Positions 1,554 through 63,417 of a DNA stretch of 64,000 nt are shown here, one piece after another. Below the pieces are notes generated by a model that worked only from the letters and a program-made list of their open reading frames with translations, was not told where the DNA came from and did not search any database. Position 1 is the stretch's first letter. Each line of letters begins with the position of its first letter. A program made the translations under genes and the position numbers. The DNA is from Desulfobacterales bacterium (GTDB lineage: Bacteria; Desulfobacterota; Syntrophobacteria; B119-G9), in assembly GCA_026983715.1 (NCBI GenBank), contig JALSTM010000077.1:304-64303 (forward strand), given 5' to 3'.

Positions 1554-1579
1554 TCAGGGATAACTTCGGACAAAAGATC

Positions 1580-16054: not shown

Positions 16055-16064
16055 TTAATCCCCC

Positions 16065-28369: not shown

Positions 28370-28428
28370 TTATTGTTATGCCTATTAAAAATGCTAGAAA
28401 CTAACCTTACGTTTCCTGTGTTAGAAGT

Positions 28429-38173: not shown

Positions 38174-39271
38174 ATGAGATCTTACTTCAAAGACAAACGT
38201 GTTCTTGTTACAGGAGCTTGCGGAACTGTTGGTCGTGAGCTTGTCCGTCAGTTGTTGGAAAACTACGGCGTCAGCGAACTTGTTGCTCTTGATAATAATG
38301 AAACCGAACTTTTTATTCTTGAAGAACGTCTTTCAAGTTATAGTAATAGTTCTTTCTTTTTAGCCGACATCAGAGACCGTGACAAACTTTGCCGCAAAAT
38401 GCAACACATGCATATAGTCTTTCATACTGCTGCATTTAAACACGTTATCATGTGTGAACGTTCACCTTTCGAAGCGGTACAAACTAATATCCTTGGTGTC
38501 AACAATATCATTTATGCGGCCTTAGAAAACAAAGTTGAACGGGTAATTTTTACAAGCTCAGATAAAGCGGTAAACCCAACAAACGTCATGGGAACTTCCA
38601 AGCTTATGGGTGAGCGTCTTATGACTGCAGCTAACGGTAATCTGCGAGATGGGCGTCAAATATTTGCTTCAACCCGGTTTGGAAATGTGTTGGGTTCCCG
38701 AGGTTCAGTGATACCTATTTTCCGTGAGCAAATTCGACGAGGTGGCCCTGTAACTCTAACGGATCCATCGATGACGCGGTTTATAATGAGCGTGCAAGAG
38801 GCAGTGAGGTTGGTTATTGAATCAACCTTTCTTGCAAGAGGTGGAGAGGTTTTTATCACCAAAATGCCAGTGATGCGAATACAGGACCTTGCTAAGGTCA
38901 TGATAGAGGAATTGGCTCCGGTTTATGGGTATCACCCGGACGAGATAGAAATAAAGCTGATCGGTGTAAAAGCGGGCGAAAAAATGTACGAGGAACTCAT
39001 GAACCATGAAGAAACAAGAAGAGCAGTGGAACTAGAGCGTTACTTCGTGGTTTTACCCGCATTCACAGGTCTTTACCGCAAAATAGATTATTCATATCCT
39101 ACTACTCTTTCTACCCATGTAACAAATCCTTATAATTCCGCAATTGAAAAGCCTCTTTCAGCCGACGAACTTCGACACTTTCTCGTAGAAAACAAACTCT
39201 TAGAGGAAGATTTGTACACTTATCGTCATCCTGCAAGACGTTATTGGCCGAACGAAAAAGAGGGTCAATGA
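38174..39271 (+). CDS. UDP-GlcNAc 4,6-dehydratase, PseB/FlaA1/CapD family (extended SDR)
   Basis: 'VLVTGACGTVGREL', 'DKAVNPTNVMGTSKL', 'RFGNVLGSRGSVIPIF', 'MTRF' match the PseB/FlaA1 pattern. Confidence 0.8.
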   Translation: MRSYFKDKRVLVTGACGTVGRELVRQLLENYGVSELVALDNNETELFILEERLSSYSNSSFFLADIRDRDKLCRKMQHMHIVFHTAAFKHVIMCERSPFEAVQTNILGVNNIIYAALENKVERVIFTSSDKAVNPTNVMGTSKLMGERLMTAANGNLRDGRQIFASTRFGNVLGSRGSVIPIFREQIRRGGPVTLTDPSMTRFIMSVQEAVRLVIESTFLARGGEVFITKMPVMRIQDLAKVMIEELAPVYGYHPDEIEIKLIGVKAGEKMYEELMNHEETRRAVELERYFVVLPAFTGLYRKIDYSYPTTLSTHVTNPYNSAIEKPLSADELRHFLVENKLLEEDLYTYRHPARRYWPNEKEGQ

Positions 39272-39323
39272 AGTATTCTTGAGAGCTACTAGGAGTGGTT
39301 CCCGTCTACTCAGAGGTGGTTTT

Positions 39324-43997: not shown

Positions 43998-44003
43998 AAC
44001 CAC

Positions 44004-46000: not shown

Positions 46001-46007
46001 TTGAAAA

Positions 46008-47030
46008 ATGGATATTCAATACAAACGCTGGAAAGCATTTGCGAGTTTCGTATCCCAATACCGTGAAGATGGTCATTATTCTTCTCTTTGGTCGGAGTTT
46101 ATCCGTGACTTCACCATAGAGCCTGGTGAATTCAAGGAGGTAAATAAGTTCATTCAAAAAAATTGCCGGGGCTATAGTTTCCTTGATAGCCCATCAGTTT
46201 TCCCTAAGTTTAGAGATGCCACTGAGCTCACATTCGGGCTTGCCGTCCACATAATTGACTCTATTTGGCGCCGGCTTCTGAGCGCAGCCAGGAGTAATAG
46301 GTTGGGGAGGCAATTAGATTGGCGTACATATAAAGTGTATGCTTTTTTGCGAAAAAACGGCATCAAAATTGATGATTACCTGGGGCCGGTTTCAAGAGTT
46401 CACCCAGTACGTATAAGCTATAATTCTTTAAAAACAGTTTATTTTGCTCATAAAGTATTTTCCAACTGCGCCTTCGATAATGATCGAAGAAATTTCTTTC
46501 TGGAAGTAGGTGCAGGAGCAGCTAACTTTCTTATCATTACAGCTTTCCGCTTTTCAAAACTCAGTTACTACGTTGTAGATCTTCCTGAAATGCTCTTAGT
46601 ATCATCGTTTGAAACATTAAAGCACGTTCCGGGTGCGCACATTTATATGCCAAATGATGTGGAAAACGGTGTCTTAGAACAACCACTTCGTGGAGACAAG
46701 AATTTTATTTTTTTGACCCCGTCGCAAATAGGAAGAATTCCTAACAACAGTATCGACTTAGCTCTGAACATAGAATCTTTCGCAGAAATGCCACAGAATG
46801 TAGCTGAAAGTTACATTGACTTTTTCTATCGCATACTTAAGCCTGGTGCTTATATGTTCACAGCCAATCGCGAATCAAGGATCATTTCTGAAAATGGTAG
46901 TTTCACATGTTACTGGAAGTTACCGTATTCTGACAAAGATAAAATAATTTTATGGGAATACTGCCCCATGCGGCAGTTTATGATGAACGGGATGTCCCCG
47001 AATATTAACAGGCTCGCTCGCGTGCCATAG
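46008..47030 (+). CDS. Putative SAM-dependent (sugar O-)methyltransferase
   Basis: Class I MTase motif I 'FLEVGAGAANF', acidic motif II 'YVVDLPE', downstream 'NIESFAEMP'. Confidence 0.45.
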   Translation: MDIQYKRWKAFASFVSQYREDGHYSSLWSEFIRDFTIEPGEFKEVNKFIQKNCRGYSFLDSPSVFPKFRDATELTFGLAVHIIDSIWRRLLSAARSNRLGRQLDWRTYKVYAFLRKNGIKIDDYLGPVSRVHPVRISYNSLKTVYFAHKVFSNCAFDNDRRNFFLEVGAGAANFLIITAFRFSKLSYYVVDLPEMLLVSSFETLKHVPGAHIYMPNDVENGVLEQPLRGDKNFIFLTPSQIGRIPNNSIDLALNIESFAEMPQNVAESYIDFFYRILKPGAYMFTANRESRIISENGSFTCYWKLPYSDKDKIILWEYCPMRQFMMNGMSPNINRLARVP

Positions 47031-47068
47031 TGAGATAGTTGTCCGTGTATTGACTGTTAGGAGATTCG

Positions 47069-48025
47069 ATGAGTAAAATGTATAAGCTTCTTGTCATCAC
47101 ACCTATAGCCCACATAAAGGGACTTAGGCATAAGTTAGCCTCTTGTTTTGATTTAATTGAGTACCCCGATCCTGTTTTTGACGATATTAGAGAAACCTTG
47201 CCTGCTATTGACTCCGTTTTCACAAATCCTAACAAATCAAAGGTACCGATTGATAGGCACTTTATGAGTTTGGCCAAGAACCTTAAAACCATTGCTACAG
47301 CCTCCACCGGGCTCATACATATTGACATGGAGGAGGCTCGGCGACGAGGTGTCAAAGTCATTTCTCTTACCAGAGAAATCGAAACAATTGAAAAAATTAG
47401 CTCTACGGCAGAACATGCTCTGGCATTAACATTGTCCGCGTTGCGTCGGATACCTTGGGCTTTTGAGGATGTTCTAAATGGAAACTGGGACTATGAAAAG
47501 TTCATAGGCCGACAGTTTGACTATTTAACTGTAGGAGTAATCGGCTGGGGACGTCTGGGGAAAATGTATGCTCGCTATGTCCAGGCACTCGGTGCGAAAG
47601 TGTTGGTCTGTGATCCAGCTTACACAGAGAAACAATGCCCGTATGCTTTGGTGGATCTGCAAGATCTGGTGCGACGCTCTGACATCATCTCCATACACAT
47701 CCATGCAACCCCTGAGAACATCGGCTTATTCGGGAAACAGTTGCTGTATTTAGCCAAGCCAGATGTGCTTATAGTCAACACCTCCCGCGGTGAGATTATC
47801 GACGAGCCGGCCATGGTCGAGTTTCTGGAAACCAATCCAAAAGCTATGTTGGCCACTGATGTGCTTGCCGATGAACTCAAGCATAAGTGGGGAAGTCCGA
47901 TATTCGATCTGGCCAAACGCGGTGGTAACGTCCTCATCACTCCACACATCGGCGGCATGACGCGGGAAGCGCAGGAGATTGCTTACCATCGTGTAGCAGA
48001 TATGCTTATCGAGTTCTTCGAATGA
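47069..48025 (+). CDS. D-isomer-specific 2-hydroxyacid dehydrogenase (NAD-binding)
   Basis: 'VGVIGWGRLGKMYARYVQALGAKVLVCD' Rossmann; catalytic R/E/H pattern ('TSRGEIIDE', 'ITPHIGG'). Confidence 0.8.
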   Translation: MSKMYKLLVITPIAHIKGLRHKLASCFDLIEYPDPVFDDIRETLPAIDSVFTNPNKSKVPIDRHFMSLAKNLKTIATASTGLIHIDMEEARRRGVKVISLTREIETIEKISSTAEHALALTLSALRRIPWAFEDVLNGNWDYEKFIGRQFDYLTVGVIGWGRLGKMYARYVQALGAKVLVCDPAYTEKQCPYALVDLQDLVRRSDIISIHIHATPENIGLFGKQLLYLAKPDVLIVNTSRGEIIDEPAMVEFLETNPKAMLATDVLADELKHKWGSPIFDLAKRGGNVLITPHIGGMTREAQEIAYHRVADMLIEFFE

Positions 48026-49089
48026 ACACAAATACCAACGCTGAAACAATAAACATAAAGCCTAGCCGGATCGCTCAGATTGATATTATCAAAGGTATTG
48101 CCATCATAGGGGTGATTATACTGCATAGCATTCCTGCTAAGATCAAAATGTCGACACATGCTGCATTGCACATCCAGCAGGCGGTGCCTGTTTTTATCGT
48201 GGTCTTCGGTTTCAATAGCAGATTACTTTTAATGCGGTACTCAAGTAAATACACAAGGGATTTTGATTGGCGGAGGTATCTCAGTAATAGATTTAGTAGA
48301 ATAGTGCTACCACTATCGTTAATTTGGGTGCTTTCTTTAGTCATCGGCATTGGGATGAAGAGTTTTTTAAAAGATGATGTGATGTATTTTGGCCCAATGT
48401 TGCTTTTTGGAAGACTCCCGTACAGAGGTCCAGGTAATTACTACATATCCGTAATTATTCAATTAGTCATTATTGCACCAATACTTTTATCGCTTTATGA
48501 AAAAAACAAGAAACTGGCACTGATTGGAATTTTTTTAGTCGACTTGGCCTTTCAATTGGGCTTTGGAAGCCTTTCTATAGTAGATGAAGCAACATACGAA
48601 TACATATGTACCCGCTTTTTATTTATGATGGTACTCGGTTTCTGGTTGCATGATCATATGGATCTTTTTTCAAAAAATAATATATGGCTACTTTTGTTAT
48701 CTACCTTCAGTATTGTTTATCTTGTAAGTTTTGGGAATACTGAATTTTCTTATTTTAGAGGTGGTATGAACAATTATGAAAATCTTTTAGCTTCTTTTTA
48801 TACAGCCGCCCTCGTGTTGACCCTATTAAATATTTTGCCAAAAGAAGAAAAAAACATCACGAGCAGATTTGTAGCTAAATGTGGGCGACTTTCCTGGCAA
48901 ATTTTTCTAGTTCAGATAGTCTACTTTCCAATCATACGGTACGTAGTAGATTACCCTAATGTATTTAAAGGGCATGATGTGTCTATTCAGATGGCGCTCT
49001 TAATTGTATATTTGAGCTTGAATATCTCGTTTTGCTATCTATTAGGCTATGCTCTTCAACGCTTTGAGAATAAATACCTGCGCTTATGA
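48022..49089 (+). CDS. Membrane acyltransferase family 3 (sugar O-acyltransferase)
   Basis: 10 TM; N-terminal 'RIAQIDIIKGIAIIGVIILHS' typical of Acyltransf_3. Confidence 0.7.
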   Translation: MNTNTNAETINIKPSRIAQIDIIKGIAIIGVIILHSIPAKIKMSTHAALHIQQAVPVFIVVFGFNSRLLLMRYSSKYTRDFDWRRYLSNRFSRIVLPLSLIWVLSLVIGIGMKSFLKDDVMYFGPMLLFGRLPYRGPGNYYISVIIQLVIIAPILLSLYEKNKKLALIGIFLVDLAFQLGFGSLSIVDEATYEYICTRFLFMMVLGFWLHDHMDLFSKNNIWLLLLSTFSIVYLVSFGNTEFSYFRGGMNNYENLLASFYTAALVLTLLNILPKEEKNITSRFVAKCGRLSWQIFLVQIVYFPIIRYVVDYPNVFKGHDVSIQMALLIVYLSLNISFCYLLGYALQRFENKYLRL

Positions 49090-49243
49090 TAAAAAATTTT
49101 CGAAGGTAAGGAAATCATTGTATTAATAATGAAATGGTTTCATGTGTAGAATTCTGGGAAACGTTACTTCGATTTTTATCAGATATAAGCAGATGAGCAA
49201 AAGAATATTAAACAGAAGAGGCAGATAGGTATACGGAGAAGAA

Positions 49244-50326
49244 GTGCACAATTTTTTCCTTGCATTTACACCCTATCATGTATTGTTATCGTGTGCGGTA
49301 GCTCTTCAAGAATGCACCAATGATTACAACCACCTAGTGATTCGCCCGAGTTTTTCACATGCACAAGTATTGACATCGCTTCTTTCCAATTGGCAAGGGT
49401 CTCCATTTACCAAGATCTCTGTTATTCGTGGATTACATGGTGTGGTTAATGAAGGATTGAGAAGATTGATACTGAAAATGAATACGGTTAAATTGACGAA
49501 AATGGTGATGAAAGAGAGGGTCAATAAAGTTTATGTGGGCTCAGACGGAAGTCCCGAATCGCAAGGGGCCTTGTATTTTGCCAAGAGTTCTAATCGAGAA
49601 AGCAAGGGAATTTATATCGAAGACGGTTCCGCCGCATATAGCGCTGCCCGCTTCTCCGAAAGAAAGGCATGGAAAGAGAATGTTGAAAAGATTTTTTACG
49701 GAACCTGGTGGGAACATATCAACATTCATGGTACCTCGAAATGGACTGATGAAGCCAGGTTAATTTATCCTCGATTTGCGAGACCTGAGTTGAGAACTAG
49801 GGTCTTAAAAGGCATTGACAGGAGAAAAATATTGTGTCTGAGAAAAGCAAAATGGCCTGCCGAATATTTGTCAACCATGGGGCTTAATCAAGTGACCTTA
49901 CGATCAATTGATGGTCTACTTCTGTTGCCTCGTTCGACTTTGGTGGGTGGAATTTCAAATCTTGTATCTATTGTCGATAAGTTTGTGTATCAGGCTTCCA
50001 AACATCATCTGACGATCGGAATCAAGTGTCACCCACGCGATGTTGCGCAAGAATTTCTTGCAAACTGGGACAATAAACACGTGCAGGTGTTGCCGAGTTC
50101 GGTACCTGTGGAACTTCTGTATCTTTATGGTAGCGACAACCTCAGGTTCGTTGTGGCGGGGGGGTCCACTTCTCTCTTAACAGCTCGGTGGTTGCTAAGT
50201 AATGCAAAAATTGTTTGCACTTTATCCTTTTCTAAATCTCTGGATAATCGACTTATGGGTACTTTTCAGAAACTGGGTATCAAGTTGTCCGGATCAGCGG
50301 AAGAAACTTTTGGGTTGATGATCTGA
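49244..50326 (+). CDS. Putative GT52-like (sialyltransferase-type) glycosyltransferase carrying an 'HP' motif
   Basis: Architectural similarity to Lst-type GT52 enzymes (N-terminal 'FTPYHVLLS', mid 'VYVGSDGS', 'IKCHPRD' HP motif); no other family fits; follows the CMP-sugar synthetase genes. Confidence 0.4.
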   Translation: MHNFFLAFTPYHVLLSCAVALQECTNDYNHLVIRPSFSHAQVLTSLLSNWQGSPFTKISVIRGLHGVVNEGLRRLILKMNTVKLTKMVMKERVNKVYVGSDGSPESQGALYFAKSSNRESKGIYIEDGSAAYSAARFSERKAWKENVEKIFYGTWWEHINIHGTSKWTDEARLIYPRFARPELRTRVLKGIDRRKILCLRKAKWPAEYLSTMGLNQVTLRSIDGLLLLPRSTLVGGISNLVSIVDKFVYQASKHHLTIGIKCHPRDVAQEFLANWDNKHVQVLPSSVPVELLYLYGSDNLRFVVAGGSTSLLTARWLLSNAKIVCTLSFSKSLDNRLMGTFQKLGIKLSGSAEETFGLMI

Positions 50327-52993: not shown

Positions 52994-53138
52994 AGCTTTG
53001 AAATCGAAATGATATGGTTGGCAGATAACAGAGAAAGGAGGTAACACAATTTGAGTTATCGCAACGATTACTTCAAAAATTGAGAGTTTCAAAAAGACAT
53101 GAATGCGTGGTGGAGAATATTTGGGAGGTGAGTATAAA

Positions 53139-53768
53139 ATGTCGGAGGAACATTATGTAGAATCAGGGAAAAATTGCCTATTCCAACATGGTGTGGTGTT
53201 AGGGCTGCGTTATAAAGAAGGTTGTTCTCCGTTTAGAGTCGGTAATGGAGCGTGTATTCGTACCGGCACAATTATTTATGCTGACGTAATTGCAGGGGAC
53301 GATTTTCAAACGGGGCACAACGTTCTAATTAGGGAGAAAACTGTTTTCGGCAATCATATTGTAGTGGGTACTAATACAGTTATTGATGGGCACGTGACAA
53401 TAGGTGACTTTGTGAAAGTAGAATCAAATTGTTACATACCCACCCATGTAACTATTGGCTCTCGTGTATTCTTTGGACCGGGTGTGATCCTTACCAACGA
53501 TCGATATCCTCAAAAGATGAGAGATCAATATCGACCTGAAGGACCAGTAATTGAGGACGGAGTAACACTGGGTGCCGGTGTGGTAGTTTTGCCGGGAGTA
53601 ACAGTAGGAAAAGGTTCTTTTGTCGCTGCAGGTGCAGTGGTAACAAAAGACATCCCCTCCATGAGTTTTGTCAAAGGAATACCTGGTAAAATTTCTTCCC
53701 TACCGGACAAATTGAGGGAGTTCAATATGGCTAAAAACTGGAGGAAGTACCTGAATGAAAAAGATTAG
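53139..53768 (+). CDS. Left-handed beta-helix (hexapeptide) sugar N-acetyltransferase, WbpD/PglD-like; start at ATG 53139 with RBS GGGAGGTG
   Basis: Repeated [LIV]GxxxxI hexapeptides ('IGDFVKVESNCYIPTHVTIGSRVFFGPGVIL...GVTLGAGVVVLPGVTVG'). Confidence 0.8.
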   Translation: MSEEHYVESGKNCLFQHGVVLGLRYKEGCSPFRVGNGACIRTGTIIYADVIAGDDFQTGHNVLIREKTVFGNHIVVGTNTVIDGHVTIGDFVKVESNCYIPTHVTIGSRVFFGPGVILTNDRYPQKMRDQYRPEGPVIEDGVTLGAGVVVLPGVTVGKGSFVAAGAVVTKDIPSMSFVKGIPGKISSLPDKLREFNMAKNWRKYLNEKD

Positions 53769-54774
53769 AGTTGCTTTGATTGGTTGTGGTAAACAGGCAG
53801 AGAAACATCTTGCAAGCCTTATGGCATATCCAAATGTCGATGTGATACTTTCTGATATGCAACCTGATCTTGCCCGATCTTTGGCCAAGAAAAACAAAGT
53901 GGCATGTGTGGATTATCCGGAGGAGGTATTCGAAATTAACGATGTACTAGCGGTTCTAATATGTACACCGACGGCTTCGCACGCTGGTTTGATTAAAAAA
54001 GCGCTTGAAAATGGTAAAGATGTCTTTTGCGAGAAACCTTTGTGCGTAAAACTTGAAGAAGCTTTTGAGTTGAAGGATCTGGAGGAAAAAACAGGCCACA
54101 GCGTGATGGTTGGCTATATTTACCGTTATGTACCAATATTTGAGGAGGGTCACCGACTGTTTTCAAAATACAGGATAGATGAAGAGAGCCTGATTCTAGG
54201 GAAACCTTTGAGCGCTTTTTTTAGACTCGGCGGACGAGGTGGTCATAGAGCGTGGAAGCATAGCAAAAACCGAGGCGGTGGTGCCATAAACGAAATGCTG
54301 GTTCACATGATTGATCTTGCCAATTGGTACTTTGGGCCTCTCTACGATGTAGAAGTTATTTCGAATGAGTTGAAGTGTCCGGAGCGGATAATCGAGGGAG
54401 ACCTTTTGAAGGTTGACGCAGAAGATTTCGTTATGATTCGCTGCTTCGGATTTTCCGGTGTAGAAATCTTTTGTCAAGCTGACCTCATTACACCGGCATT
54501 TAACCAGTATGTTGAGATACAGTGTGAAAATGGAACCTTCATGGGCTCCATACAACCTGAAATGCCTTCGTTTGTTTATATGAAAAGGGCGCGGGGAGGA
54601 TACGAAGCTGGAAAGACAGTGCTCAAATATGGTAAGAGGAAAGTCTTAGATATTCAAATGGCCCATTTTATCAAGGTCATATCAGAAAGAAAAAGGCCAG
54701 ATCGTAATCGTATCGAAGACTCGATTGAATTGATGAGAATTATCCGAGAGATATTATCGCAGAGTAGAAAATGA
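53755..54774 (+). CDS. Gfo/Idh/MocA-family NAD-dependent sugar oxidoreductase (WbpB-like)
   Basis: 'KIRVALIGCGKQAEKH' Rossmann; 14-nt overlap with the acetyltransferase gene. Confidence 0.8.
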   Translation: MKKIRVALIGCGKQAEKHLASLMAYPNVDVILSDMQPDLARSLAKKNKVACVDYPEEVFEINDVLAVLICTPTASHAGLIKKALENGKDVFCEKPLCVKLEEAFELKDLEEKTGHSVMVGYIYRYVPIFEEGHRLFSKYRIDEESLILGKPLSAFFRLGGRGGHRAWKHSKNRGGGAINEMLVHMIDLANWYFGPLYDVEVISNELKCPERIIEGDLLKVDAEDFVMIRCFGFSGVEIFCQADLITPAFNQYVEIQCENGTFMGSIQPEMPSFVYMKRARGGYEAGKTVLKYGKRKVLDIQMAHFIKVISERKRPDRNRIEDSIELMRIIREILSQSRK

Positions 54775-55916
54775 ATAAGAAAAATAACATACTGATGGCG
54801 GAAATCAAGCTGACTGATGCGGAAGTTGAAGCTGCAGTCCGTGTGCTTAGATCTGGGAAGCTGCGGCAGGGCAAGGAATGCAGAGCTTTTGAGGAAGAGT
54901 TTGCGGAAAAAGTGGGTGCAAAATGTGCTGTTACATGCGCTAGTGGTACAGCTGCACTGCATCTCGCTTACATGACACTGCTTAAACCTTCTGATGAAGT
55001 GCTGGTACCAAGTTTCACCTTTATTGCTACGGCGAGCATGGTCACGATGTCGGGGGGGAAACCAGTTTTCTGTGATATAGATCCTGAGACTTTTCTGATA
55101 GATTTAAGAGATGCTGAGAGGAAGATAACATCACGAACAAAAGTTATTTCTCCTGTCCACCTCTTTGGAAATCCTTGTGATGTCGAAGCAATTAGAAAGT
55201 TTGCTGATAAATATGGACTGAAAATCGTCTGGGATGCAGCTCAGGCTCACGGTGCGACTTTTAAAGGGAAAGATGTGGGTTCTTTTGGCGAGTTTGTATG
55301 TTATTCGTTTTATCCTTCAAAAAATATGTTTGTCGGTGAAGGTGGAATGATCTGCACAAACAATTCGGAACTTGGAAATAGGGTCAGATATCTTAGAACA
55401 CACGGTCAAACGGATAAATATTACCATACCATGTTGGGTTTTAACTACCGCATGACTGATGTGGAAGCAGCGATCGGAAGGGAACAATTAAAACGACTAG
55501 ATAGCATGTTGCATATTAGGAGGCAAAATGCGGAAATCCTGAACAGAGGTTTGACAGGCATACAAGGGATTCGGCCCCAAAAGACCACTCCCAACGCTTG
55601 TCATGCGTGGCATCAGTACAGCGTAGTAATAGAACCTGAAGATTTTCGGTGTACTAGAGCTGAACTTGCAAAATTTTTGGAAGCAAGAGGGGTCGCCACC
55701 AACGTTCATTATCCACGCGGATTGCATCAACAGCCCATTTTTGAAAGGATGTACGGAAAAGTTGTTCTTCCAAACACTGAATCTCTTGCGAAAAACATCC
55801 TAGCATTGCCCGTGCATCATGGATTGTCTAAAGCTGATGTAGAGAGGATTGTTGAAGTGATATATGAAGCTGGTCGACACTTTAATGGCAAAACGCATGG
55901 CCTATCCCAAGTGTAA
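54771..55916 (+). CDS. DegT/DnrJ/EryC1/StrS PLP-dependent sugar aminotransferase (WbpE/PseC/PglE-like)
   Basis: 'CTNNSELGNRVRYLRTHGQ', 'FYPSKNM' PLP-lysine region; 4-nt overlap with upstream gene. Confidence 0.85.
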   Translation: MNKKNNILMAEIKLTDAEVEAAVRVLRSGKLRQGKECRAFEEEFAEKVGAKCAVTCASGTAALHLAYMTLLKPSDEVLVPSFTFIATASMVTMSGGKPVFCDIDPETFLIDLRDAERKITSRTKVISPVHLFGNPCDVEAIRKFADKYGLKIVWDAAQAHGATFKGKDVGSFGEFVCYSFYPSKNMFVGEGGMICTNNSELGNRVRYLRTHGQTDKYYHTMLGFNYRMTDVEAAIGREQLKRLDSMLHIRRQNAEILNRGLTGIQGIRPQKTTPNACHAWHQYSVVIEPEDFRCTRAELAKFLEARGVATNVHYPRGLHQQPIFERMYGKVVLPNTESLAKNILALPVHHGLSKADVERIVEVIYEAGRHFNGKTHGLSQV

Positions 55917-57217: not shown

Positions 57218-57961
57218 GTGCCTGTAGCTTCTGGGAGTAAGGATTCTGGGTTGAGTCTTGGTGAAAAAGCGACATGTAATTTAAAAATGGGGTTGAAGGC
57301 TGGTGGTGCACCCAGAATGTGGAAGCGCATTATCCGGCATTCTATTCCACATATAAAGCAGCTCGTGTTGCCCGGTAGCCAAATTCTTGAAGTTGGTTAT
57401 GGTGATGGATTACTAAGCTGCTATTTGGTCCAAAAACTGGGTTGGTATCTAACTGGTTTTGATATTTCACCCGAAGCCCATGAGACTGCAATCAAGAATG
57501 CCAAACGTTTTGGACTGGAAGACAGAGCTGAATTTCGCTTTTGCAGTCCTGAAGAAACTTGGCAGCATTGCGGTCGATATGATGCGGTGTTCATCAAAAC
57601 AGTACTTTATAGTTCGCCAAATTTGGCCGAATACGGCAGGAGGCTTGACTGGATTATATCAGTGCTGAGACCAGGAGGTGTGCTGATTAATTTTGAAACC
57701 GGCCGAGCTAACTACCTTGTGAATATTTACCGCCGGATAAGGAGGAGGGAATACACAAATTTATGTCTTTATACTAGCGAGGTAGAGGCCTTGTATAATG
57801 CCCGGTTTGACATAGTTTTTAGAAGATACTATGGAGGGTGGAGCCAGTTTGCTGCTCCCATTAAAGGTGTTTACAATTTCATGGTCCTGCTGGAGGAAAG
57901 TTTTCGACCAAGGGGCCCGGATAATTGTTTTGCTGTGAGCATCATTGCCAAGAAACGATAA
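57218..57961 (+). CDS. Class I SAM-dependent methyltransferase (start uncertain; alternative ATGs at 57287 and 57317)
   Basis: Motif I 'ILEVGYGDGLLS', motif II 'AVFIKTVLY'. Confidence 0.65.
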   Translation: MPVASGSKDSGLSLGEKATCNLKMGLKAGGAPRMWKRIIRHSIPHIKQLVLPGSQILEVGYGDGLLSCYLVQKLGWYLTGFDISPEAHETAIKNAKRFGLEDRAEFRFCSPEETWQHCGRYDAVFIKTVLYSSPNLAEYGRRLDWIISVLRPGGVLINFETGRANYLVNIYRRIRRREYTNLCLYTSEVEALYNARFDIVFRRYYGGWSQFAAPIKGVYNFMVLLEESFRPRGPDNCFAVSIIAKKR

Positions 57962-58451
57962 CTTGAAGTATCCAATTGCTGCACAAAGACGTGATATTGT
58001 ATTGGTGTTCTTGGGCTAAAGGAAGAGCTTTTCTATTTGAGGAAACTCTGATTAGTTACTTAGTTTGCCTATGGTCTCTTGCACGTCATACCGGACCCCT
58101 GATCCAGTCAGGGACAGGCTCTGATCCGGGGTCCAATTAAAGAATCCTAGGTTCCGATTCTACGCTTCGCTCCGGCCGGAATAACGATTTCTAAGTTGTG
58201 ATCATCCTACTTGTTTAATTGATTGTACTCCTAAAAATCGGAACTAATCGGAGCTTCCCTGATTGAAGAGATTTAATAACTTTTGGATCTTTGGTGTTGG
58301 GATCCAGGACGGCAGGTGAGGCAGGTCTGGTACTCAAGTAATAGCGGAAGTATTCTAATCAAAACCCCATTGAAGATTTTATCAAAATCCCCAATGACTC
58401 GTTATAATGAGCTGCAAACTCAAGCAATGGTTTTCCGATCCACGAGGAGTT

Positions 58452-59099
58452 ATGAAACGAGGTTTTGACATTGTCTGTGCTGCTACAGGTCTGTTGGTTT
58501 TGAGCCCCTTGCTGATCTTGATTGCCCGGAGGATTAAAAAGGAAGATGGCGGTCCTATTTTTTACAGGGGTGAGAGGGTCGGACGGCATGGTAAGACTTT
58601 CAGAATTTATAAGTTCAGAACTATGGTCGTGGATGCGGAGAAAATAGGTCCGTGTTCTACGTCGGAAGAAGATCCGAGGATTACTAGAATCGGGCATTTT
58701 TTAAGGAAACGTAAGCTTGATGAATTACCACAATTGATAAACGTGCTGTTGGGAGACATGAGTATCGTTGGGCCTAGACCCGAAGTAAAACGTTTTGTAG
58801 ACATGTTTACGGATAGAGAAAAAGCTATTCTATCGGTTAGGCCAGGAATTACTGACTGGGCATCCATATGGAACTGTGATGAGGGTTCAGTGCTGGCAGG
58901 TGCGAAAGATCCCGATAAGGTTTACCTTGAACAAATTCGACCTACAAAAATTGCATTGCAACTAAAATACGTTGAAGAACAAAGTTTTCGCACAGATCTA
59001 AAAATAATATTCTTAACTCTGCTTGCCGTGATTAACCCTGAGATTAAAATGATCCGAGAAATTAGGCAATATATAATCCCTCACAATAACCCGGTCTAA
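58452..59099 (+). CDS. Undecaprenyl-phosphate sugar phosphotransferase (small PglC/WbaP-C-terminal type initiating transferase); start at 'MKRGFDIV'
   Basis: 'KRGFDIVCAATGLLVLSPLLILIA' TM helix, 'DELPQLINVLLGDMSIVGPRPE' catalytic signature of the bacterial sugar transferase family. Confidence 0.85.
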   Translation: MKRGFDIVCAATGLLVLSPLLILIARRIKKEDGGPIFYRGERVGRHGKTFRIYKFRTMVVDAEKIGPCSTSEEDPRITRIGHFLRKRKLDELPQLINVLLGDMSIVGPRPEVKRFVDMFTDREKAILSVRPGITDWASIWNCDEGSVLAGAKDPDKVYLEQIRPTKIALQLKYVEEQSFRTDLKIIFLTLLAVINPEIKMIREIRQYIIPHNNPV

Positions 59100-59117: not shown

Positions 59118-60095
59118 GTGGGTTACTCGAGAGAACTACTTGCGAATCTATATCGCACAATGGTTCGCATCAGATTTTGCGAAGAAAGCTTGGTCAAACC
59201 TATTTTGAAAGGTGAAATAATATGTCCGTGTCATTTATATTCTGGGCAAGAGGCTGTTGCGGCCGGCATTTGTGAGTCTTTGAATGAGAAAGATTACGTG
59301 TTTGGTACTCATCGGTCTCATGGACACTTTTTAGCTATGGGTGGAGCTATGAGGGATTTGTTGGCGGAGATTTTTACCCGGGAAACAGGGTGTTCGAGAG
59401 GTAGGGGAGGTTCCATGCACTTGATTGACCCTGGAAAGGGAATTATGGGAGCTGCTCCTATTGTTGCCGGTACAATTTCTCTCGCCATGGGTGCCGCCCT
59501 TGCTTCTAATTTGCGCGGTGAGAAGAGAGTGGCTGTGAGTTTCTTTGGAGATGGGGCAGCAGGTGAAGGAGTGCTCTACGAATGCCTTAATTTTGCGGCT
59601 TTAAAAAAACTACCATTGGTATTTGTCTGCGAAAATAATTTTTATTCTACTCACATGCCGATACAAGAATGCAGAGTTAATGGAGACATTTACAAGATTG
59701 CAGAGCCTTTTTCCGTTAAGTCTTCTAAAGTCGATGGAAATGACGTTTTAAAGGTGTACGAGGCAGGTAAGGAAGCAATTGAGTTTTGTAGAAAAGGGGA
59801 AGGACCTGTGTTTCTTGAATGTAAAACTTATCGCTTTAGAGGCCATGTGGGCCCTGACGACAATATTCAGGGAACGCATACCGACATACGCCCGAGGGAA
59901 GAAGTTGAAAGTTGGTTAAAAAAGGATCCGATAACACGATTTGAGAAATATCTGCTGGAGAATAATCTTCTAAGTGAAAAACTACTTGATGGTATTAAGA
60001 AAGAGATTAGTGACGAAGTTGAAGAGTCCATTGAATTTGCGAAAAACAGTCCGTATCCTGAAGCAAAGGAATTAACCCGATATGTCTATAAATAG
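59118..60095 (+). CDS. TPP-dependent 2-oxoacid dehydrogenase E1 component, alpha subunit (PdhA/AcoA-like)
   Basis: 'GQEAVAAGI', 'THRSHGH', TPP-binding 'GDGAAGEGVLYECLNFA'; 14-nt overlap with the beta subunit. Confidence 0.85.
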   Translation: MGYSRELLANLYRTMVRIRFCEESLVKPILKGEIICPCHLYSGQEAVAAGICESLNEKDYVFGTHRSHGHFLAMGGAMRDLLAEIFTRETGCSRGRGGSMHLIDPGKGIMGAAPIVAGTISLAMGAALASNLRGEKRVAVSFFGDGAAGEGVLYECLNFAALKKLPLVFVCENNFYSTHMPIQECRVNGDIYKIAEPFSVKSSKVDGNDVLKVYEAGKEAIEFCRKGEGPVFLECKTYRFRGHVGPDDNIQGTHTDIRPREEVESWLKKDPITRFEKYLLENNLLSEKLLDGIKKEISDEVEESIEFAKNSPYPEAKELTRYVYK

Positions 60096-61077
60096 AAAAC
60101 TACAATACAGTCTGGCAATCAATGAAGCATTGCATCAAATGATGGCAGTTAATGATTCGGTCTTTTTAATGGGACAGGGTGTAAAGAGTCCCTGGTACGT
60201 TGGAAACACTGCAAGAGGACTGCTGGAGAAATTTGGAAATGGCCGAGTGATAGACACCCCAGTGTCTGAGAATTCCATAACTGGTGCCGGGGTGGGGGCA
60301 GCAATTGCTGGGATGAGACCGATTATTGTGCATCCTAGAATGGATTTTATGCTCTACGCCATGGATCCCATAATAAATGAAGCAGCTAACTGGTATTATA
60401 TGAATGGTGGCAGAGTATCCGTACCTGTAGTTATATGGGGTATAATAAATAGGGGTGGAGAACAAGCAGCACAGCATTCCCAAGCCCTTCACTCGATATT
60501 TTCACACGTTCCGGGCCTCAAGGTTGTTATGCCTTCGACTCCTTACGACGCAAAAGGGCTAATGATAGCAGCTATAGAGGATGATAATCCTGTTGTATTT
60601 ATAGATGATAGATGGCTCTACGGAATCGAAGATTTTGTTCCTGAAGAAATTTACATTGTGGAGATCGGAAAGGGAATTATTCGGAAAGAAGGGTCTGATA
60701 TCACGCTTGTTTCCATATCGTTCATGGCCCATCAGGCTCTTGAAGCTGCTAACAGACTAGCAGAAGAGAACATACATGTTGAAGTTATTGATCTTCGCTC
60801 CGCAAAACCAATAGATACCGAAATAATTATTGATTCATTGAAAAAAACAGGTTTTCTAGTTGTGCTGGATGGGGGCTGGAAAACCTGTGGTTTCTCATCA
60901 GAAGTGGCCGCCATCGTCGCAGAAAAAGGATACCAATATCTCAGGGGGCCAATAAGACGTATAACTCTTCCGGATTGTCCTGCTCCTGCAAGCTCGGTGC
61001 TTGAAAAAGCATATTACCCGAATTCTGATAATATTGTCGCTAACATAAAATCCTATCTAGAAAATTTCCATCGATGA
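60082..61077 (+). CDS. TPP-dependent 2-oxoacid dehydrogenase E1 component, beta subunit (transketolase-like Pyr and C-terminal domains)
   Basis: 'VFLMGQGV', 'DTPVSENSITGAGVGAAIAGMRPI', 'KVVMPSTPYDAKGLM'. Confidence 0.85.
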   Translation: MSINRKLQYSLAINEALHQMMAVNDSVFLMGQGVKSPWYVGNTARGLLEKFGNGRVIDTPVSENSITGAGVGAAIAGMRPIIVHPRMDFMLYAMDPIINEAANWYYMNGGRVSVPVVIWGIINRGGEQAAQHSQALHSIFSHVPGLKVVMPSTPYDAKGLMIAAIEDDNPVVFIDDRWLYGIEDFVPEEIYIVEIGKGIIRKEGSDITLVSISFMAHQALEAANRLAEENIHVEVIDLRSAKPIDTEIIIDSLKKTGFLVVLDGGWKTCGFSSEVAAIVAEKGYQYLRGPIRRITLPDCPAPASSVLEKAYYPNSDNIVANIKSYLENFHR

Positions 61078-61099: not shown

Positions 61100-62227
61100 A
61101 TGGGATACAAGGTTCGATTTGTTGACCCTGCCAGGAACTACCGAATGATCAAGGAAGAAATAGACAAAGCTTACTTCGAAGTAATGAGCAAAGGAGATTT
61201 GATTGACCGGCAGCATTTAAGAGATTTTGAGGCTAATCTGGCGGCCTTCGTAGGAACAAAATACGCCGTGGGGCTAAATAGTGGATATGATGCTCTGCAC
61301 ATGTCACTAAGAGCGGCGGGAGTCGGTCTGGGAGATGAGGTTATCGTGCCTTCTCATACCTTTGTTGCGACAGCATCTGCAGTAGTGAATGTTGGAGCAA
61401 AGCCGGTTCTTGTTGATGTGGGAAAGGACTTCAATATTGATTGCAGCAAGATAGAGGAAGCTATTACAGAGCAGACAAAAGCAATTATTCCGGTACACCT
61501 GAATGGCTACATGGCAGATATGGAAAGAATTATGGAACTTGCTAACAAGTATAATCTTGTGGTGATAGAAGACGCTTGCCAGAGTCTGGGAGCAAGCATG
61601 TTGGATGAAAAAGCAGAGGGTAAGAAAAAAAAGGCAGGTTCGTGGGGGCTTACCGGATGCTGGAGTTTCTATCCATTCAAAATGCTTGGTGGTTACGGTG
61701 ATGGAGGAGCTATTACTACTAACGATCCAGATGTGGCTCTGTTCGCGAGACGCATGAGGTTTAACGGTGAAGATCGTGAAACTGGGGAGTACCACGGGCA
61801 TGGATTTACCTGCCTGCTAGATAACCTTCAAGCTGCGTTTCTTGACGTGAAACTGAGATATTTACCTGAATGGATAAAGAGAAGGCAAGAAATTGCCAAG
61901 CGTTACAGAAGGGGGCTTAAAGACTTAGAAGACCTTATGCTACCTCACTATGATGATCCGAGAAGGGATCATGTTTACCAGAATTATGTGGTTAGATCAA
62001 AGCAGGGGGATGAATTTTCTAATTATCTCAAGGCAAATGGTGTAGAAGTATTGATTCAATTCAGGAAGCCCTATTACAAGCACAAAGCTTTACAGTTGGA
62101 AGACAGGGGATTCCCTGAAACTGAGGCGCTAAGTAAAGAGGTATGTTCTTTGCCGATGAATGTGGAAATAACTGATGAAGAAGTCGATTATGTTATTTCT
62201 GTTGTGCGCAGTTTCTATTCAAAATAA
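61100..62227 (+). CDS. DegT/DnrJ/EryC1/StrS-family PLP enzyme (sugar aminotransferase or dehydratase)
   Basis: 'VPSHTFVATASAVV', 'EDACQSLGA', 'SFYPFKMLGGYGDGGA' with lysine. Confidence 0.8.
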   Translation: MGYKVRFVDPARNYRMIKEEIDKAYFEVMSKGDLIDRQHLRDFEANLAAFVGTKYAVGLNSGYDALHMSLRAAGVGLGDEVIVPSHTFVATASAVVNVGAKPVLVDVGKDFNIDCSKIEEAITEQTKAIIPVHLNGYMADMERIMELANKYNLVVIEDACQSLGASMLDEKAEGKKKKAGSWGLTGCWSFYPFKMLGGYGDGGAITTNDPDVALFARRMRFNGEDRETGEYHGHGFTCLLDNLQAAFLDVKLRYLPEWIKRRQEIAKRYRRGLKDLEDLMLPHYDDPRRDHVYQNYVVRSKQGDEFSNYLKANGVEVLIQFRKPYYKHKALQLEDRGFPETEALSKEVCSLPMNVEITDEEVDYVISVVRSFYSK

Positions 62228-62259: not shown

Positions 62260-63417
62260 ATGGCTCTCAACTTAAGTTCCCGACACGAATTGGTGAGGCA
62301 ATCCGAAATACGTAATATGTCTGTTGAATGTGATAGAATGGGGGGGATTAATTTATCACAAGGAATAAGTGATTTGGCTGTACCCAAGTGTGTGATGATG
62401 GCAGCCCAAAAGGCAATAGAAGGAGGATATAATTCTTATACCCATTTCAGTGGATTGGAGGAGCTTCGAAAAGCTATTGCAGAAAAGCAAAAAAAATATA
62501 CCGGGATGGATATCGATCCTGAAAACGAAATTGTCGTTAGTGCAGGCTCGACAGGAGCGTTTTACTGTGCATGCCTTGCTCTTTTAAATCCAGGAGATGA
62601 AGTAATCTTGTTTGAGCCATATTACGGCTATCACAAGACAACTTTGGTTGCAGCAGGGGCGGTACCGGTTTATGTTCGTCTTTCTCCTCCTGAATGGACC
62701 TTTACAGATGAATCGTTGGAATCAGTTGTTTCAGGAAAAACAAGAGGAATACTCATCAATACGCCTGCTAATCCTTCAGGAAAGGTGTTCAGTAAAGAGG
62801 AACTTGATCGGATTGCTGAATTTGCTTCCAATTATGATCTTTTTGTATTCACAGATGAAATCTATGAACACTTTCTCTATGACGGGAAGGAACATATCGC
62901 TCCGGCGACCATTCCCGGGATGAGGGAAAGGACGATTACCATATCGGGTTTATCAAAGACTTTTAGCATCACTGGTTGGAGAATCGGATATTCTATTTGT
63001 GATCCCAAATGGTCCAGAAGTATTGGTTACTTTAATGACCTTATATACGTATGTGCCCCTTCGCCACTGCAGATGGGCGTAGCTAAAGGCTTGATAGACT
63101 TGGATAAAGACTTTTACCAACATATCTCCCAACAATTTCAGAGAAAACGAGATATGGTTTGTAATTCTTTGAGAGAAGCAAATCTTAACCCCTTTGTTCC
63201 CGAAGGGGCATATTATATTTTGGCAGATATTTCAAGAATACCGGGAAAAAGCAGCAATGAACGTTGCTTATATATTTTGCGTGAGATAGGAGTTGCGAGC
63301 GTGCCGGGTAGTGCCTTTTACCACGACAAATCGGGGGAGAAGTTAGCAAGATTTTGTTTTGCAAAAGAAGATTACGTTTTGAGCGAAGCTTGCACGAGAT
63401 TAAAGAGTTTGAAATAA
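62260..63417 (+). CDS. Class I/II (aspartate-aminotransferase-fold) PLP aminotransferase
   Basis: 'INLSQGISDL', 'LINTPANPSGKVFS', 'SGLSKTFSITGWRIGY' PLP-lysine region. Confidence 0.8.
   Translation: MALNLSSRHELVRQSEIRNMSVECDRMGGINLSQGISDLAVPKCVMMAAQKAIEGGYNSYTHFSGLEELRKAIAEKQKKYTGMDIDPENEIVVSAGSTGAFYCACLALLNPGDEVILFEPYYGYHKTTLVAAGAVPVYVRLSPPEWTFTDESLESVVSGKTRGILINTPANPSGKVFSKEELDRIAEFASNYDLFVFTDEIYEHFLYDGKEHIAPATIPGMRERTITISGLSKTFSITGWRIGYSICDPKWSRSIGYFNDLIYVCAPSPLQMGVAKGLIDLDKDFYQHISQQFQRKRDMVCNSLREANLNPFVPEGAYYILADISRIPGKSSNERCLYILREIGVASVPGSAFYHDKSGEKLARFCFAKEDYVLSEACTRLKSLK

Follow-up and report, generated by a model that had tools for sequence, protein, structure and literature searches.

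A stand-alone E1-alpha/E1-beta pair in a surface-polysaccharide operon is a candidate sugar C-branching carboligase

The window, the whole 64-kb stretch of DNA analysed here, carries on its forward strand two translationally coupled genes for the subunits of a thiamine-dependent E1 enzyme. E1-alpha (59118..60095, +) is the ThDP-binding subunit, a protein of 325 residues with a GTG start that matches Pfam E1_dh (PF00676, E=3e-73), whereas E1-beta (60082..61077, +; 331 residues) comprises the pyrimidine-binding domain (Transket_pyr, PF02779, 1e-32) and the C-terminal domain (Transketolase_C, PF02780, 3e-38). Positions 60082-60095 are common to both reading frames, which bears out the 14-nt overlap and the translational coupling claimed in a first-pass annotation of this DNA; E1-alpha ends in ...YVYK-TAG, and the E1-beta start, ATG-TCT-ATA, lies within the overlap with AAGGA upstream. 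The GTG at 59118, preceded at 6 nt by GGAGG, is the correct start of E1-alpha, since homologues of 325-326 residues align with it over 99-100% of the protein. The pair is embedded in a tight run of five genes, with an initiating phosphoglycosyl transferase (PGT) on its 5' side and two PLP enzymes, a DegT-type and a class I/II aminotransferase, on its 3' side, an arrangement that had been described correctly. The intergenic gaps of the run measure 18-32 nt and every gene is preceded by a ribosome-binding site; the gap between the PGT and E1-alpha is 18 nt, with the GGAGG inside it. A terminator before 59118, which the first-pass annotation had named as evidence against the linkage, was found neither there nor within the gene run.

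The first gene of the run encodes a small monotopic PGT of the PglC type (58452..59099, +; Bac_transf, PF02397, E=3e-62) with the Asp-Glu motif KLDELPQL. Its start is most likely 58452 rather than 58407, with a GAGGAG ribosome-binding site at 58452 and the same length of 215 residues in independent gene calls from three other contigs. Downstream of the pair, DegT2 (61100..62227, +) is a DegT/DnrJ/EryC1 PLP aminotransferase (PF01041, E=2e-99) with its lysine present in SFYPFK, and its closest solved relatives are 7b0d, 7n63, QdtB, DesV and WbpE, not PglE or PseC. The last gene (62260..63417, +) encodes a class I/II amino-acid aminotransferase (PF00155, E=8e-61; lysine in LSKTF), whose PDB relatives are of the generic Asp/aromatic/kynurenine type, and which possibly, though this is speculative, serves pyruvate supply and/or glutamate regeneration. 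On the 5' side, a SAM-dependent methyltransferase (57218..57961, +; Pfam Methyltransf_25/23/31) precedes the PGT, and a ~490-bp non-coding gap contains a promoter-like site, TTATCA-18-TATAAT (58379..58408, +), which could be the internal promoter of the five-gene cassette by its 10/12 match to the consensus; promoter-like sites are no more numerous in this region than in shuffled sequence. An Rfam scan of the window returned no match, such as a TPP riboswitch in the gap 5' of the PGT. Further upstream, a soluble UDP-GlcNAc 4,6-dehydratase (38174..39271, +; Polysacc_synt_2, PF02719, E=2e-97) resembles PseB and FnlA, with NCBIfam scores of 269 and 218 bits, respectively, both under the cut-off. 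In addition, a hexapeptide transferase (53103) belongs to a WbpD/B/E-like triad and not to the conserved cassette.

Comparison with ~80 related loci, including (i) group A, 39 loci, and (ii) group B, a more distant clade, places these genes in a recurrent context. The order PGT-E1-alpha-E1-beta, either followed by a DegT gene or with an aldo-keto reductase (AKR) ahead of the pair, recurs in ~40 loci of many phyla, including Desulfobacterota, Nitrospirota, Planctomycetota, Patescibacteria and Bacteroidota, and its frequent companions are a PglF-like UDP-GlcNAc 4,6-dehydratase and a methyltransferase. A PGT homologue is present in 33/39 group-A loci, usually directly 5' of E1-alpha, and on one contig (P0100) the two form a single fusion ORF. 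By ORF clustering, a DegT homologue occurs in 27/39 group-A loci; in most of the group it is no more than a few kb away from the E1 pair (41-77% identity), mostly straight after E1-beta, and in 8-9 of these loci it is adjoined by a class I aminotransferase. The AKR stands between PGT and E1-alpha in 8 loci, and two loci (L011 and L015) differ by the exchange of AKR for DegT. On the other hand, four loci (L019, L027, L043 and L074) have a second DegT gene next to the E1 pair, and one (L023) carries AKR and DegT together, arrangements not simply accounted for by a single branch ketone. The methyltransferase of the window shares 44% identity with that adjoining DegT-AT-PGT-E1 in L016 and 24-31% identity with the methyltransferases of family f10, located ahead of the PGT in 12 group-A loci; its position just 5' of the PGT matches theirs, and its role may be to modify the sugar or its branch, judging from these similarities. 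The PglF-like dehydratase is present in at least 15 of the 39 group-A loci, in proteins of ~620 residues where clustered, and the dehydratase of the window shows 36-44% identity to the dehydratase-homologous stretches adjoining the cassette in related loci. Group B (45-50% identity) is likewise found in glycan loci, with genes for GDP-mannose 4,6-dehydratase (Gmd), HldE-like proteins, GT9 and radical-SAM enzymes; an NDP-sugar 4,6-dehydratase is therefore the common theme.

This composition recalls the PglF/PglE/PglC module with the E1 pair in the place of PglD, and a first alternative function follows this resemblance: the pair would make a side-chain unit by decarboxylation of a 2-oxo acid, for which the class I aminotransferase is a conceivable source, and DegT would form a 4-amino-4,6-dideoxy-HexNAc whose nitrogen receives the acyl or aldehyde unit, so that the pair would in effect replace PglD of the bacillosamine pathway. 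That no hexapeptide, PglD-type acetyltransferase is a conserved cassette member in the related loci, and that a class I aminotransferase accompanies DegT in 8-9 of them, fits such a role. However, five full-length 21-kb loci carry the E1 pair without an aminotransferase of any kind, most of them with PGT and dehydratase and 3/5 with the AKR between PGT and E1-alpha; the E1 enzyme therefore does not need an amino sugar. Moreover, DegT2 resembles 3-aminotransferases and not PglE or PseC, and the route is thus not the standard bacillosamine one; the formation of an amide from hydroxyethyl-ThDP requires an oxidant or carrier, neither of which is conserved in the cassette; and the AKR as alternative partner fits poorly. 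We regard this side-chain function as quite improbable.

The pair itself has, by its sequence, the fold of the heterotetramer-type 2-oxoacid dehydrogenase E1, with all ThDP catalytic residues intact. The GDG-X(26)-NN ThDP/Mg motif is present in E1-alpha (GDG at 144-146, NN at 173-174), in which H39, R66, Y176 and H243 align with H63, R90, Y198 and H263 of human PDH E1-alpha, and E63 and H132 of E1-beta align with human E59, the cofactor-activating glutamate, and H128, the catalytic histidine; beta-E63, beta-H132 and alpha-H243 are invariant in 69-72 relatives. The TPP_enzyme_C match on E1-alpha is weak and sub-threshold (21.8 < 21.9), E1_dh being the best family. These catalytic histidines are what would be expected of an ordinary metabolic pyruvate/acetoin dehydrogenase E1 that merely adjoins the glycan genes while its E2/E3 partners are encoded elsewhere, an explanation also favoured by how closely the pair resembles PDH E1: among solved structures its best relative is the human PDH E1, E1-alpha reaches 342.7 bits against TIGR03182, the curated PDH E1 equivalog, and E1-beta scores 339.1 against the NCBI PDH-E1-beta subfamily model NF006667, over its cut-off of 321. 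Since E1-beta exceeds this cut-off and both reductive-acetylation histidines are kept, the sequence taken alone is compatible with a dehydrogenase role. The score of E1-alpha, nevertheless, is under the TIGR03182 cut-off of 393.85, and the pair is translationally embedded in an operon whose cassette is conserved over many phyla.

The partner genes of such a dehydrogenase were sought at three scales. A Pfam scan of every window ORF with 150 aa or more detects no E2, E3 or lipoyl protein in the 64 kb; the contig continuation (L081), extending 7 kb beyond the window, contains none of these and no LipA; and tblastn over the window plus 80-83 related loci (1.24 Mb in all), with a real E2 of the CAT type, AcoC, a free lipoyl protein, E3 and LipA as queries, gives no match to an E2, E3, lipoyl protein or LipA at E<=1e-3. 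Pfam and tblastn replaced regular expressions for the E2 (DHRxxDG) and E3 motifs, which proved too insensitive in positive controls, failing to detect two E2s of the AcoC type and one genuine E3. The first-pass annotation had reported no E2/E3 partners, and this holds across the wider range. By contrast, the nearest E2-type relatives of the pair carry an E2 gene immediately downstream.

Residues that distinguish the family lie outside the catalytic set. R288 of E1-beta stands at the position of human D289 and G. stearothermophilus E285, the acidic E1-beta residue that we take to contact the E2 subunit-binding domain; a literature search on the E1-E2 contact D289/K276 returned no relevant paper. 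Lysine or arginine occupies this position in 65/72 family members, whereas an acidic residue (D/E) is found in the human and G. stearothermophilus enzymes and in four bacterial pairs with a full E2; one comparison pair having only a free lipoyl protein shows arginine. Both active-site loops also differ between the family and five E2-linked E1 pairs: at alpha 264-266, the S-x-S of the E2-linked pairs becomes an invariant V-G-P, and alpha 197, 200 and 201 become F, T/S and H. The sites for E2 docking, a role presumed for the former position, and for the lipoyl substrate thus appear remodelled. The E1-alpha proteins of glycan loci separate from the E2-linked pairs in 97/100 neighbour-joining bootstraps, while the E1-beta tree separates the clades poorly (21/100). 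Given the charge reversal at the putative contact, the remodelled loops and the lack of any E2/E3/lipoyl gene in 1.24 Mb of related loci, a metabolic dehydrogenase is a very improbable identity for this pair.

The explanation that we favour, somewhat more probable than otherwise in our estimation, is that the E1 pair is a lipoyl-independent carboligase of the AviB1/B2, Pau11/12 or KbDH type, which would place an acetyl branch on a UDP-4-keto-6-deoxy-HexNAc, the branch ketone then being aminated. The genomic setting suggests a dedicated role in making the sugar with which a Wzx/Wzy-type surface polysaccharide begins. Its support comprises the cassette of ~40 loci, AKR and DegT as alternative partners, the aminotransferase-free loci and the remodelled E2-docking and lipoyl-substrate sites. 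The proposal of the first-pass annotation, a plausible sugar C-branching or acyloin-forming activity, thereby gains from the conserved synteny, the AKR/DegT swap and the absence of E2/E3 genes.

Donor, acceptor, branch position and step order are those that we infer in the following scheme. The 4,6-dehydratase (38174; PglF-like in the relatives), the likely source of the acceptor, would convert UDP-GlcNAc into UDP-2-acetamido-2,6-dideoxy-hexos-4-ulose. E1-alpha/beta would decarboxylate pyruvate to hydroxyethylidene-ThDP, a two-carbon acyl-anion equivalent whose addition to the ring ketone would yield a tertiary alcohol with a C-acetyl branch. DegT2 would then convert the branch ketone by amination into a 1-aminoethyl group, and in AKR-bearing relatives the ketone would instead be reduced to 1-hydroxyethyl. 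From alanine and 2-oxoglutarate, the class I aminotransferase may form pyruvate and glutamate, and would therefore feed both E1 and DegT. Finally, the methyltransferase may tailor the product, and the PglC-type PGT would move the sugar phosphate onto undecaprenyl phosphate.

The same genomic evidence would serve for a thiamine-dependent C-C reaction of some other kind on a sugar nucleotide, as it does not fix donor, acceptor or position. Examples include (i) aldehyde chain extension to a higher-carbon sugar, (ii) C3 branching after keto-isomerisation, (iii) use of a non-pyruvate donor, and (iv) acyloin cleavage. The solved relatives nearest to DegT2 act at C3. Known E1-type enzymes branch at C3 or C4, and the E1 of acetoin:DCPIP oxidoreductase takes acetoin-type donors (PMC12247030). 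Nevertheless, no keto-isomerase or 6-oxidase is conserved among the recurrent families of the related loci, and the known E1-type sugar enzymes are, according to a review, all pyruvate-using C2 transferases (PMC12247030). We consider such a reaction unlikely. A phosphonate (AEP) pathway, suggested by the combination of a TPP enzyme with aminotransferases, was rejected, as the locus has no PEP mutase and its TPP enzyme is of the E1 type, not of the Ppd type.

The first-pass annotation had further called such an activity unusual in a cell-surface polysaccharide. This stands with respect to the described literature: C2 branching of a polymer's first sugar by an E1 pair would be a reaction whose known examples come mainly from the biosynthesis of antibiotics, and no relevant publication on E1 pairs encoded in loci for O-antigen, capsule or EPS emerged from a literature search. 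It does not stand as a statement of rarity, because relatives are encoded by at least 504 species-level genomes. The Coxiella O-antigen region, considered as another carrier of E1, was dropped after no mention was encountered in the Coxiella literature searched. A broader proposal, possible but still doubtful, is that many uncultured lineages (Desulfobacterota, Nitrospirota, Omnitrophota, Planctomycetota, Patescibacteria) begin their surface polysaccharides with a widespread, undescribed class of reducing-end HexNAc, one whose branch is C-(1-aminoethyl) or C-(1-hydroxyethyl) and which is made by a distinct E1 clade; this clade would no longer dock E2 and would be tied to the initiating PGT genetically and occasionally physically.

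If the carboligase function is correct, E1-type sugar branching would not be confined to actinomycete antibiotics and would be a common route to diverse cell-surface glycans, predicting a new family of branched amino sugars, and the resulting chiral tertiary alcohols would be of interest in biocatalysis. V-G-P in place of S-x-S, together with Lys/Arg in place of the Asp/Glu presumed to contact E2, would then provide sequence markers of carboligase- versus dehydrogenase-type E1; annotation pipelines at present label all such pairs 'pyruvate/acetoin dehydrogenase'. The compact cassette of 5-7 genes is testable in E. coli.

The closest functional parallels are the actinomycete E1-type branching enzymes AviB1/AviB2 (avilamycin), Pau11/Pau12 (paulomycin), AlmDI/DII (aldgamycin) and KbDH-alpha/beta (kibdelomycin), the heterotetramers of this type being named 'alpha-ketoacid dehydrogenase 2' in the carboligase literature. 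AviB1/AviB2, cited in the first-pass annotation as stand-alone precedents, are genuine ones: they and Pau11/Pau12 are proposed to install a pyruvate-derived C-4 acetyl branch, which in the latter system is reduced by the aldo-keto reductase Pau7 (PMC4753412), and KbDH-alpha/beta performs pyruvate-ketone carboligation in vitro, the branch ketone of kibdelomycin being transaminated (PMC12247030). Like these systems, the locus has separate alpha and beta E1 genes without E2/E3, a likeness of gene setting, and an NDP-sugar 4,6-dehydratase in the window and in the loci of its relatives; as with Pau7 or in kibdelomycin, an AKR or aminotransferase stands beside the pair and would act on the branch. 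Unlike them, the pair of the window lies in a Wzx/Wzy surface-polysaccharide operon, coupled to the initiating PGT, the acceptor is likely to be a ketone derived from UDP-HexNAc and not a TDP-deoxysugar, and its family is hosted mostly by uncultured Gram-negative bacteria and candidate phyla.

C-branching of surface glycans is itself known from YerE/YerF (yersiniose) and the YerE-like ErwE and MMAR_2332, in which a thiamine-dependent enzyme adds an acyl anion to an NDP-4-keto sugar and, in the YerE/YerF route, the branch ketone is then reduced; a 2025 review assigns LPS C-branching to YerE-like enzymes and the E1-type enzymes to secondary metabolites (PMC12247030). YerE, which acts on CDP-3,6-dideoxy-4-keto-glucose, is a single-chain flavoprotein of the decarboxylase superfamily, resembling acetolactate synthase, whereas the window has an E1 alpha/beta pair, and its E1-alpha lacks the TPP_enzyme N/M/C architecture of YerE.

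AcoA/AcoB and PdhA/PdhB share the fold, the domain set and identical ThDP/Mg and catalytic residues with the pair, at ~42-43% identity. They include the plasmid-borne operons L084 and L087-L089, which came from a plasmid collection tried as a source of actinomycete sugar-branching pairs; its top matches were E2-linked acetoin-type operons, used here as outgroup. These operons have E2 (and E3, LipA) directly 3', an acidic residue aligned with D289 and the S-x-S loop, none of which occurs in the window family. Finally, the bacillosamine/AATGal module (PglF-PglE-PglD-PglC; WcfR-WcfS), which makes a reducing-end sugar, shares the small PglC-type PGT, the UDP-GlcNAc 4,6-dehydratase and a DegT aminotransferase with the cassette of the window, but the latter lacks a PglD-type acetyltransferase, has an aminotransferase unlike PglE and includes an inserted E1 pair.

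The E1 genes are located in the last five genes of a plus-strand glycan cluster (~36.2 to 63.4 kb), running from the phosphoglycosyl transferase (PGT) to a class I/II aminotransferase. The E1-alpha gene (59118-60095, plus strand) encodes a 325-residue protein with a GTG start and matches the Pfam family E1_dh (E=3e-73), and the E1-beta gene (60082-61077, plus strand) encodes a 331-residue protein with Transket_pyr and Transketolase_C matches. The frames share 14 nt (60082-60095; junction ...cga tAT Gtc tat aaa tag), and the overlapping pair called at 59118-61077 in the first-pass annotation is confirmed by reading frames, domains and overlap alike. AAGGA lies upstream of the E1-beta ATG, whereas the E1-alpha GTG is preceded by GGAGG 6 nt 5', the stop codon of the preceding gene being only 18 nt away. 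That gene, directly upstream on the plus strand, encodes a Bac_transf PGT with a KLDELPQL dyad; its start is probably 58452 (215 residues), because the ATG there has a GAGGAG site on its 5' side and other contigs yield concordant gene calls. Downstream follow, on the plus strand, a DegT/DnrJ/EryC1 aminotransferase (DegT2, 61100-62227), with the SFYPFK lysine and GGAGG likewise 5' of its start, and the class I/II aminotransferase (62260-63417), so that the described placement between a sugar phosphotransferase and two PLP enzymes also holds. No terminator-like hairpin was found on the plus strand between 58400 and 63100, and none separates the PGT from 59118.

The PGT is preceded by a non-coding gap of ~490 bp (57962-58451), unusually long for an otherwise tight operon, which contains a putative promoter-like site (58379-58408) overlapped by an inverted repeat with a 14-bp stem (58367-58397); an Rfam search of the gap gave no match. 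The cluster further comprises (i) a PseB/FnlA-like UDP-GlcNAc 4,6-dehydratase (38174, plus strand); (ii) a SAM methyltransferase (57218, plus strand); (iii) a Wzx flippase, a Wzy polymerase and several glycosyltransferases; and (iv) NeuB-like and CMP-transferase-like genes and a WbpD/WbpB/WbpE-like triad. Next after the dehydratase, the product of 39279-40514 (plus strand) scores 400 bits against the NCBIfam UDP-sulfoquinovose synthase model (cut-off 575), and the same glycan may contain a sulfo-sugar or a related 6-modified sugar. The reading frame at 42055-43113 has no family match, and is followed by a nonulosonic-acid-like set (43191-50326, plus strand) comprising a short NeuB/PseI-like synthase (268 residues) apparently missing its C-terminal domain. 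The set also encodes PseF-like cytidylyltransferase, NanM-like sugar O-methyltransferase and D-2-hydroxyacid dehydrogenase enzymes, as well as an Acyl_transf_3 protein and a protein with weak resemblance to polysialyltransferases. In the triad (53103-55916, plus strand), the genes for hexapeptide acetyltransferase, GFO/IDH/MocA oxidoreductase and DegT aminotransferase overlap by 4-14 nt; it would be a route to a 3-acetamido sugar, distinct from the E1 cassette, and recurs in two related loci (L023 and L031).

Adjoining the Wzx/Wzy cluster, a minus-strand operon akin to the E. coli Nfr system (27353-35673) comprises a UDP-GlcNAc 2-epimerase (34453-35673), a GT2 synthase ending in a c-di-GMP-binding MshEN domain (32213-34456), an NfrA_C-containing TPR protein of 1263 residues (28429-32220) and a DUF4434 protein (27353-28369), which suggests a second exopolysaccharide, probably under c-di-GMP control. 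Two side regions carry type IV pilus/T2SS genes (13130-17801, minus strand), among them those for a PilS-like kinase, a T2SSF protein and an MshEN-containing T2SSE ATPase, and LptF/LptG genes (408-2659, plus strand); these permeases at the window start indicate a diderm host.

The absence of nearby E2 and E3 partners, anticipated from the first reading, withstood both searches. A Pfam scan of every window reading frame of at least 150 residues detected no lipoyl, E3-binding, 2-oxoacid_dh or pyridine-nucleotide-disulfide oxidoreductase domain, and tblastn with queries from annotated plasmid operons (E2s of the CAT type and of the AcoC type, two each, plus a free lipoyl protein, E3 and LipA) returned nothing at E<=1e-3 in the window, its contig continuation (L081) and 80 related loci, 1.24 Mb in total. 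The nearest E2-type relatives found (42-43% identity), on plasmids of Rhizobium, Aminobacter, Pseudoroseomonas, Agrobacterium and Rubrobacter, differ from the window pair in carrying an E2 or lipoyl protein directly after E1-beta, one operon additionally encoding lpdA and lipA. On the Rubrobacter indicoceani plasmid (L086, 2721-5042) the pair is followed only by an 80-residue biotin/lipoyl protein and sugar ABC-transporter genes, and may represent an intermediate type with a free lipoyl carrier.

Alignment to human PDH E1, whose numbering is used here with a and b for E1-alpha and E1-beta, reveals that aH63, aR90, the GDG...NN motif, aY198, aH263, bE59, bF85 and bH128 are kept in the window proteins and all relatives. 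This retention of cofactor and catalytic residues predicts ThDP binding and 2-oxo acid decarboxylation by the window enzyme. Other positions, at which the family shows little or no variation, depart from the human, G. stearothermophilus and five E2-linked bacterial references, including (i) a264-266, S-x-S to V-G-P; (ii) a197 to F, a200 from M to T/S, a201 to H (group A, one of two sets of related loci) and a61 to P; and (iii) b33 from Y to P and b60 to N. In human E1, the walls of the active-site channel are formed by two loops, a198-205 and a259-282, which also contact the lipoyl domain. Human D289 and G. stearothermophilus E285 presumably form a salt bridge to the E2 subunit-binding domain; of the 72 family members, 65 have K/R at the equivalent E1-beta position (R288 in the window protein), whereas this residue is D/E in the human and G. 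stearothermophilus enzymes and in each of the four bacterial pairs that have a complete E2, and R in the Rubrobacter pair, whose only partner is the free lipoyl protein. This charge swap sorts the sequences cleanly and is a lead as a putative E2-contact marker. By neighbour-joining, the split of groups A and B together from the E2-linked outgroup recurs in 97 of 100 E1-alpha bootstraps but only 21 of 100 for E1-beta; E1-alpha falls below the NCBI PDH equivalog cut-off (342.7 versus 393.85) and E1-beta exceeds that of its subfamily model. An ordinary metabolic dehydrogenase, the annotation (pyruvate or acetoin) that the cassette pairs carry everywhere, is very improbable.

Protein databases contain thousands of relatives, the closest (67-77% identical) metagenomic almost without exception, and scanning a single genome for each species disclosed at least 504 loci. 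Mapping the window proteins onto the best 80 and clustering all their reading frames gave two groups. Group A (~39 loci, roughly 45-84% identity) spans Desulfobacterota, Nitrospirota, Planctomycetota, Patescibacteria, Saccharibacteria, Bacteroidota, Actinomycetota and Chloroflexota, with the recurrent order [glycosyltransferases] [methyltransferase] PGT [aldo-keto reductase, AKR] E1-alpha E1-beta [DegT] [class I aminotransferase] [methyltransferase] [PglF-like 4,6-dehydratase]. As lower bounds, many contigs being short, PGT occurs in at least 33 of the 39 loci, DegT in 27, the PglF-like gene in 15, each methyltransferase family in 12, and AKR and class I aminotransferase in 8 each. One metagenomic contig (P0100) encodes PGT and E1-alpha in a continuous 546-residue frame without internal start or stop, which, having been seen only once, may be a genuine fusion or reflect a sequencing error. 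In a Patescibacteria MAG (L007:9264-9968), a 234-residue frame with a homing-endonuclease-like NUMOD3 motif is inserted between PGT and E1-alpha. Group B (L029-L080; e.g. L030:10001-16318, L058 and L072), a second clade of stand-alone pairs (45-50% identity), is flanked by radical-SAM/SPASM, B12-binding radical-SAM, GT2, GT9 heptosyltransferase-like, HldE-like, nucleotidyltransferase and GDP-mannose 4,6-dehydratase genes, a conserved glycan pathway. Both neighbourhoods thus mark the clades as glycan-pathway enzymes tied to NDP-sugar 4,6-dehydratases.

The best-supported model, which we favour with modest confidence, is pyruvate-dependent two-carbon branching of the dehydratase's keto sugar, followed by DegT or AKR tailoring and PGT loading. 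The E1 pair would transfer a C2 acyl-anion equivalent from pyruvate onto the keto group, giving a C-acetyl tertiary alcohol; DegT2 would aminate the branch ketone, which AKR would instead reduce in other loci; the product may be modified by a methyltransferase and would be loaded onto the lipid carrier by the PGT. The sugar-branching role first proposed gains support from the lack of nearby E2/E3 genes, the conserved cassette and the intact catalytic residues, as a predicted function. A different thiamine-dependent C-C reaction, altered in position, donor or acceptor, is rather unlikely. Still less probable is that the pair builds a side chain for N-modification: no oxidant or carrier is conserved in the cassette, and five loci (L005, L011, L012, L018 and L042) lack DegT and class I aminotransferase homologues within 10 kb of each side, so that E1 function cannot depend on an amino sugar. 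AKR lies between PGT and E1-alpha in L003, L005, L011, L012 and L065, with no DegT in the sequence examined (L003 and L065 being short contigs), and L011 is collinear with L015 except for AKR versus DegT. L023 has both, and loci with AKR and DegT together, or with two DegT genes, are not fully explained by the branching model. The closest solved relatives of DegT2 are 7b0d, 7n63, QdtB, DesV and WbpE, not PglE or PseC, so that the cassette is no ordinary route to bacillosamine. The class I aminotransferase belongs to the generic Asp/aromatic/kynurenine type; as pure inference, it could economically convert alanine and 2-oxoglutarate into pyruvate and glutamate.

Among known systems, AviB1/AviB2 and their homologues Pau11/Pau12 are the proposed installers of a pyruvate-derived C-4 acetyl branch, reduced by the aldo-keto reductase Pau7 (PMC4753412). 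A 2025 review classes such pairs as 'alpha-ketoacid dehydrogenase 2', counts ~120 biosynthetic clusters with such a gene, describes in vitro pyruvate-ketone coupling by KbDH-alpha/beta (kibdelomycin), and lists reduction, methylation, oxidation and transamination as possible fates of the branch ketone (PMC12247030). It assigns lipopolysaccharide branching to YerE-like single-chain enzymes and the E1 type to secondary metabolites (PMC12247030). The literature searched offered no description of such a pair from O-antigen, capsule or EPS loci, although the genome-mining work that produced the figure of ~120 clusters may include some. The enzyme would be of a known kind; what is new here is a putative E1-type sugar-branching carboligase cassette, widespread among uncultured bacteria and coupled to the transferase that starts surface-polysaccharide assembly.
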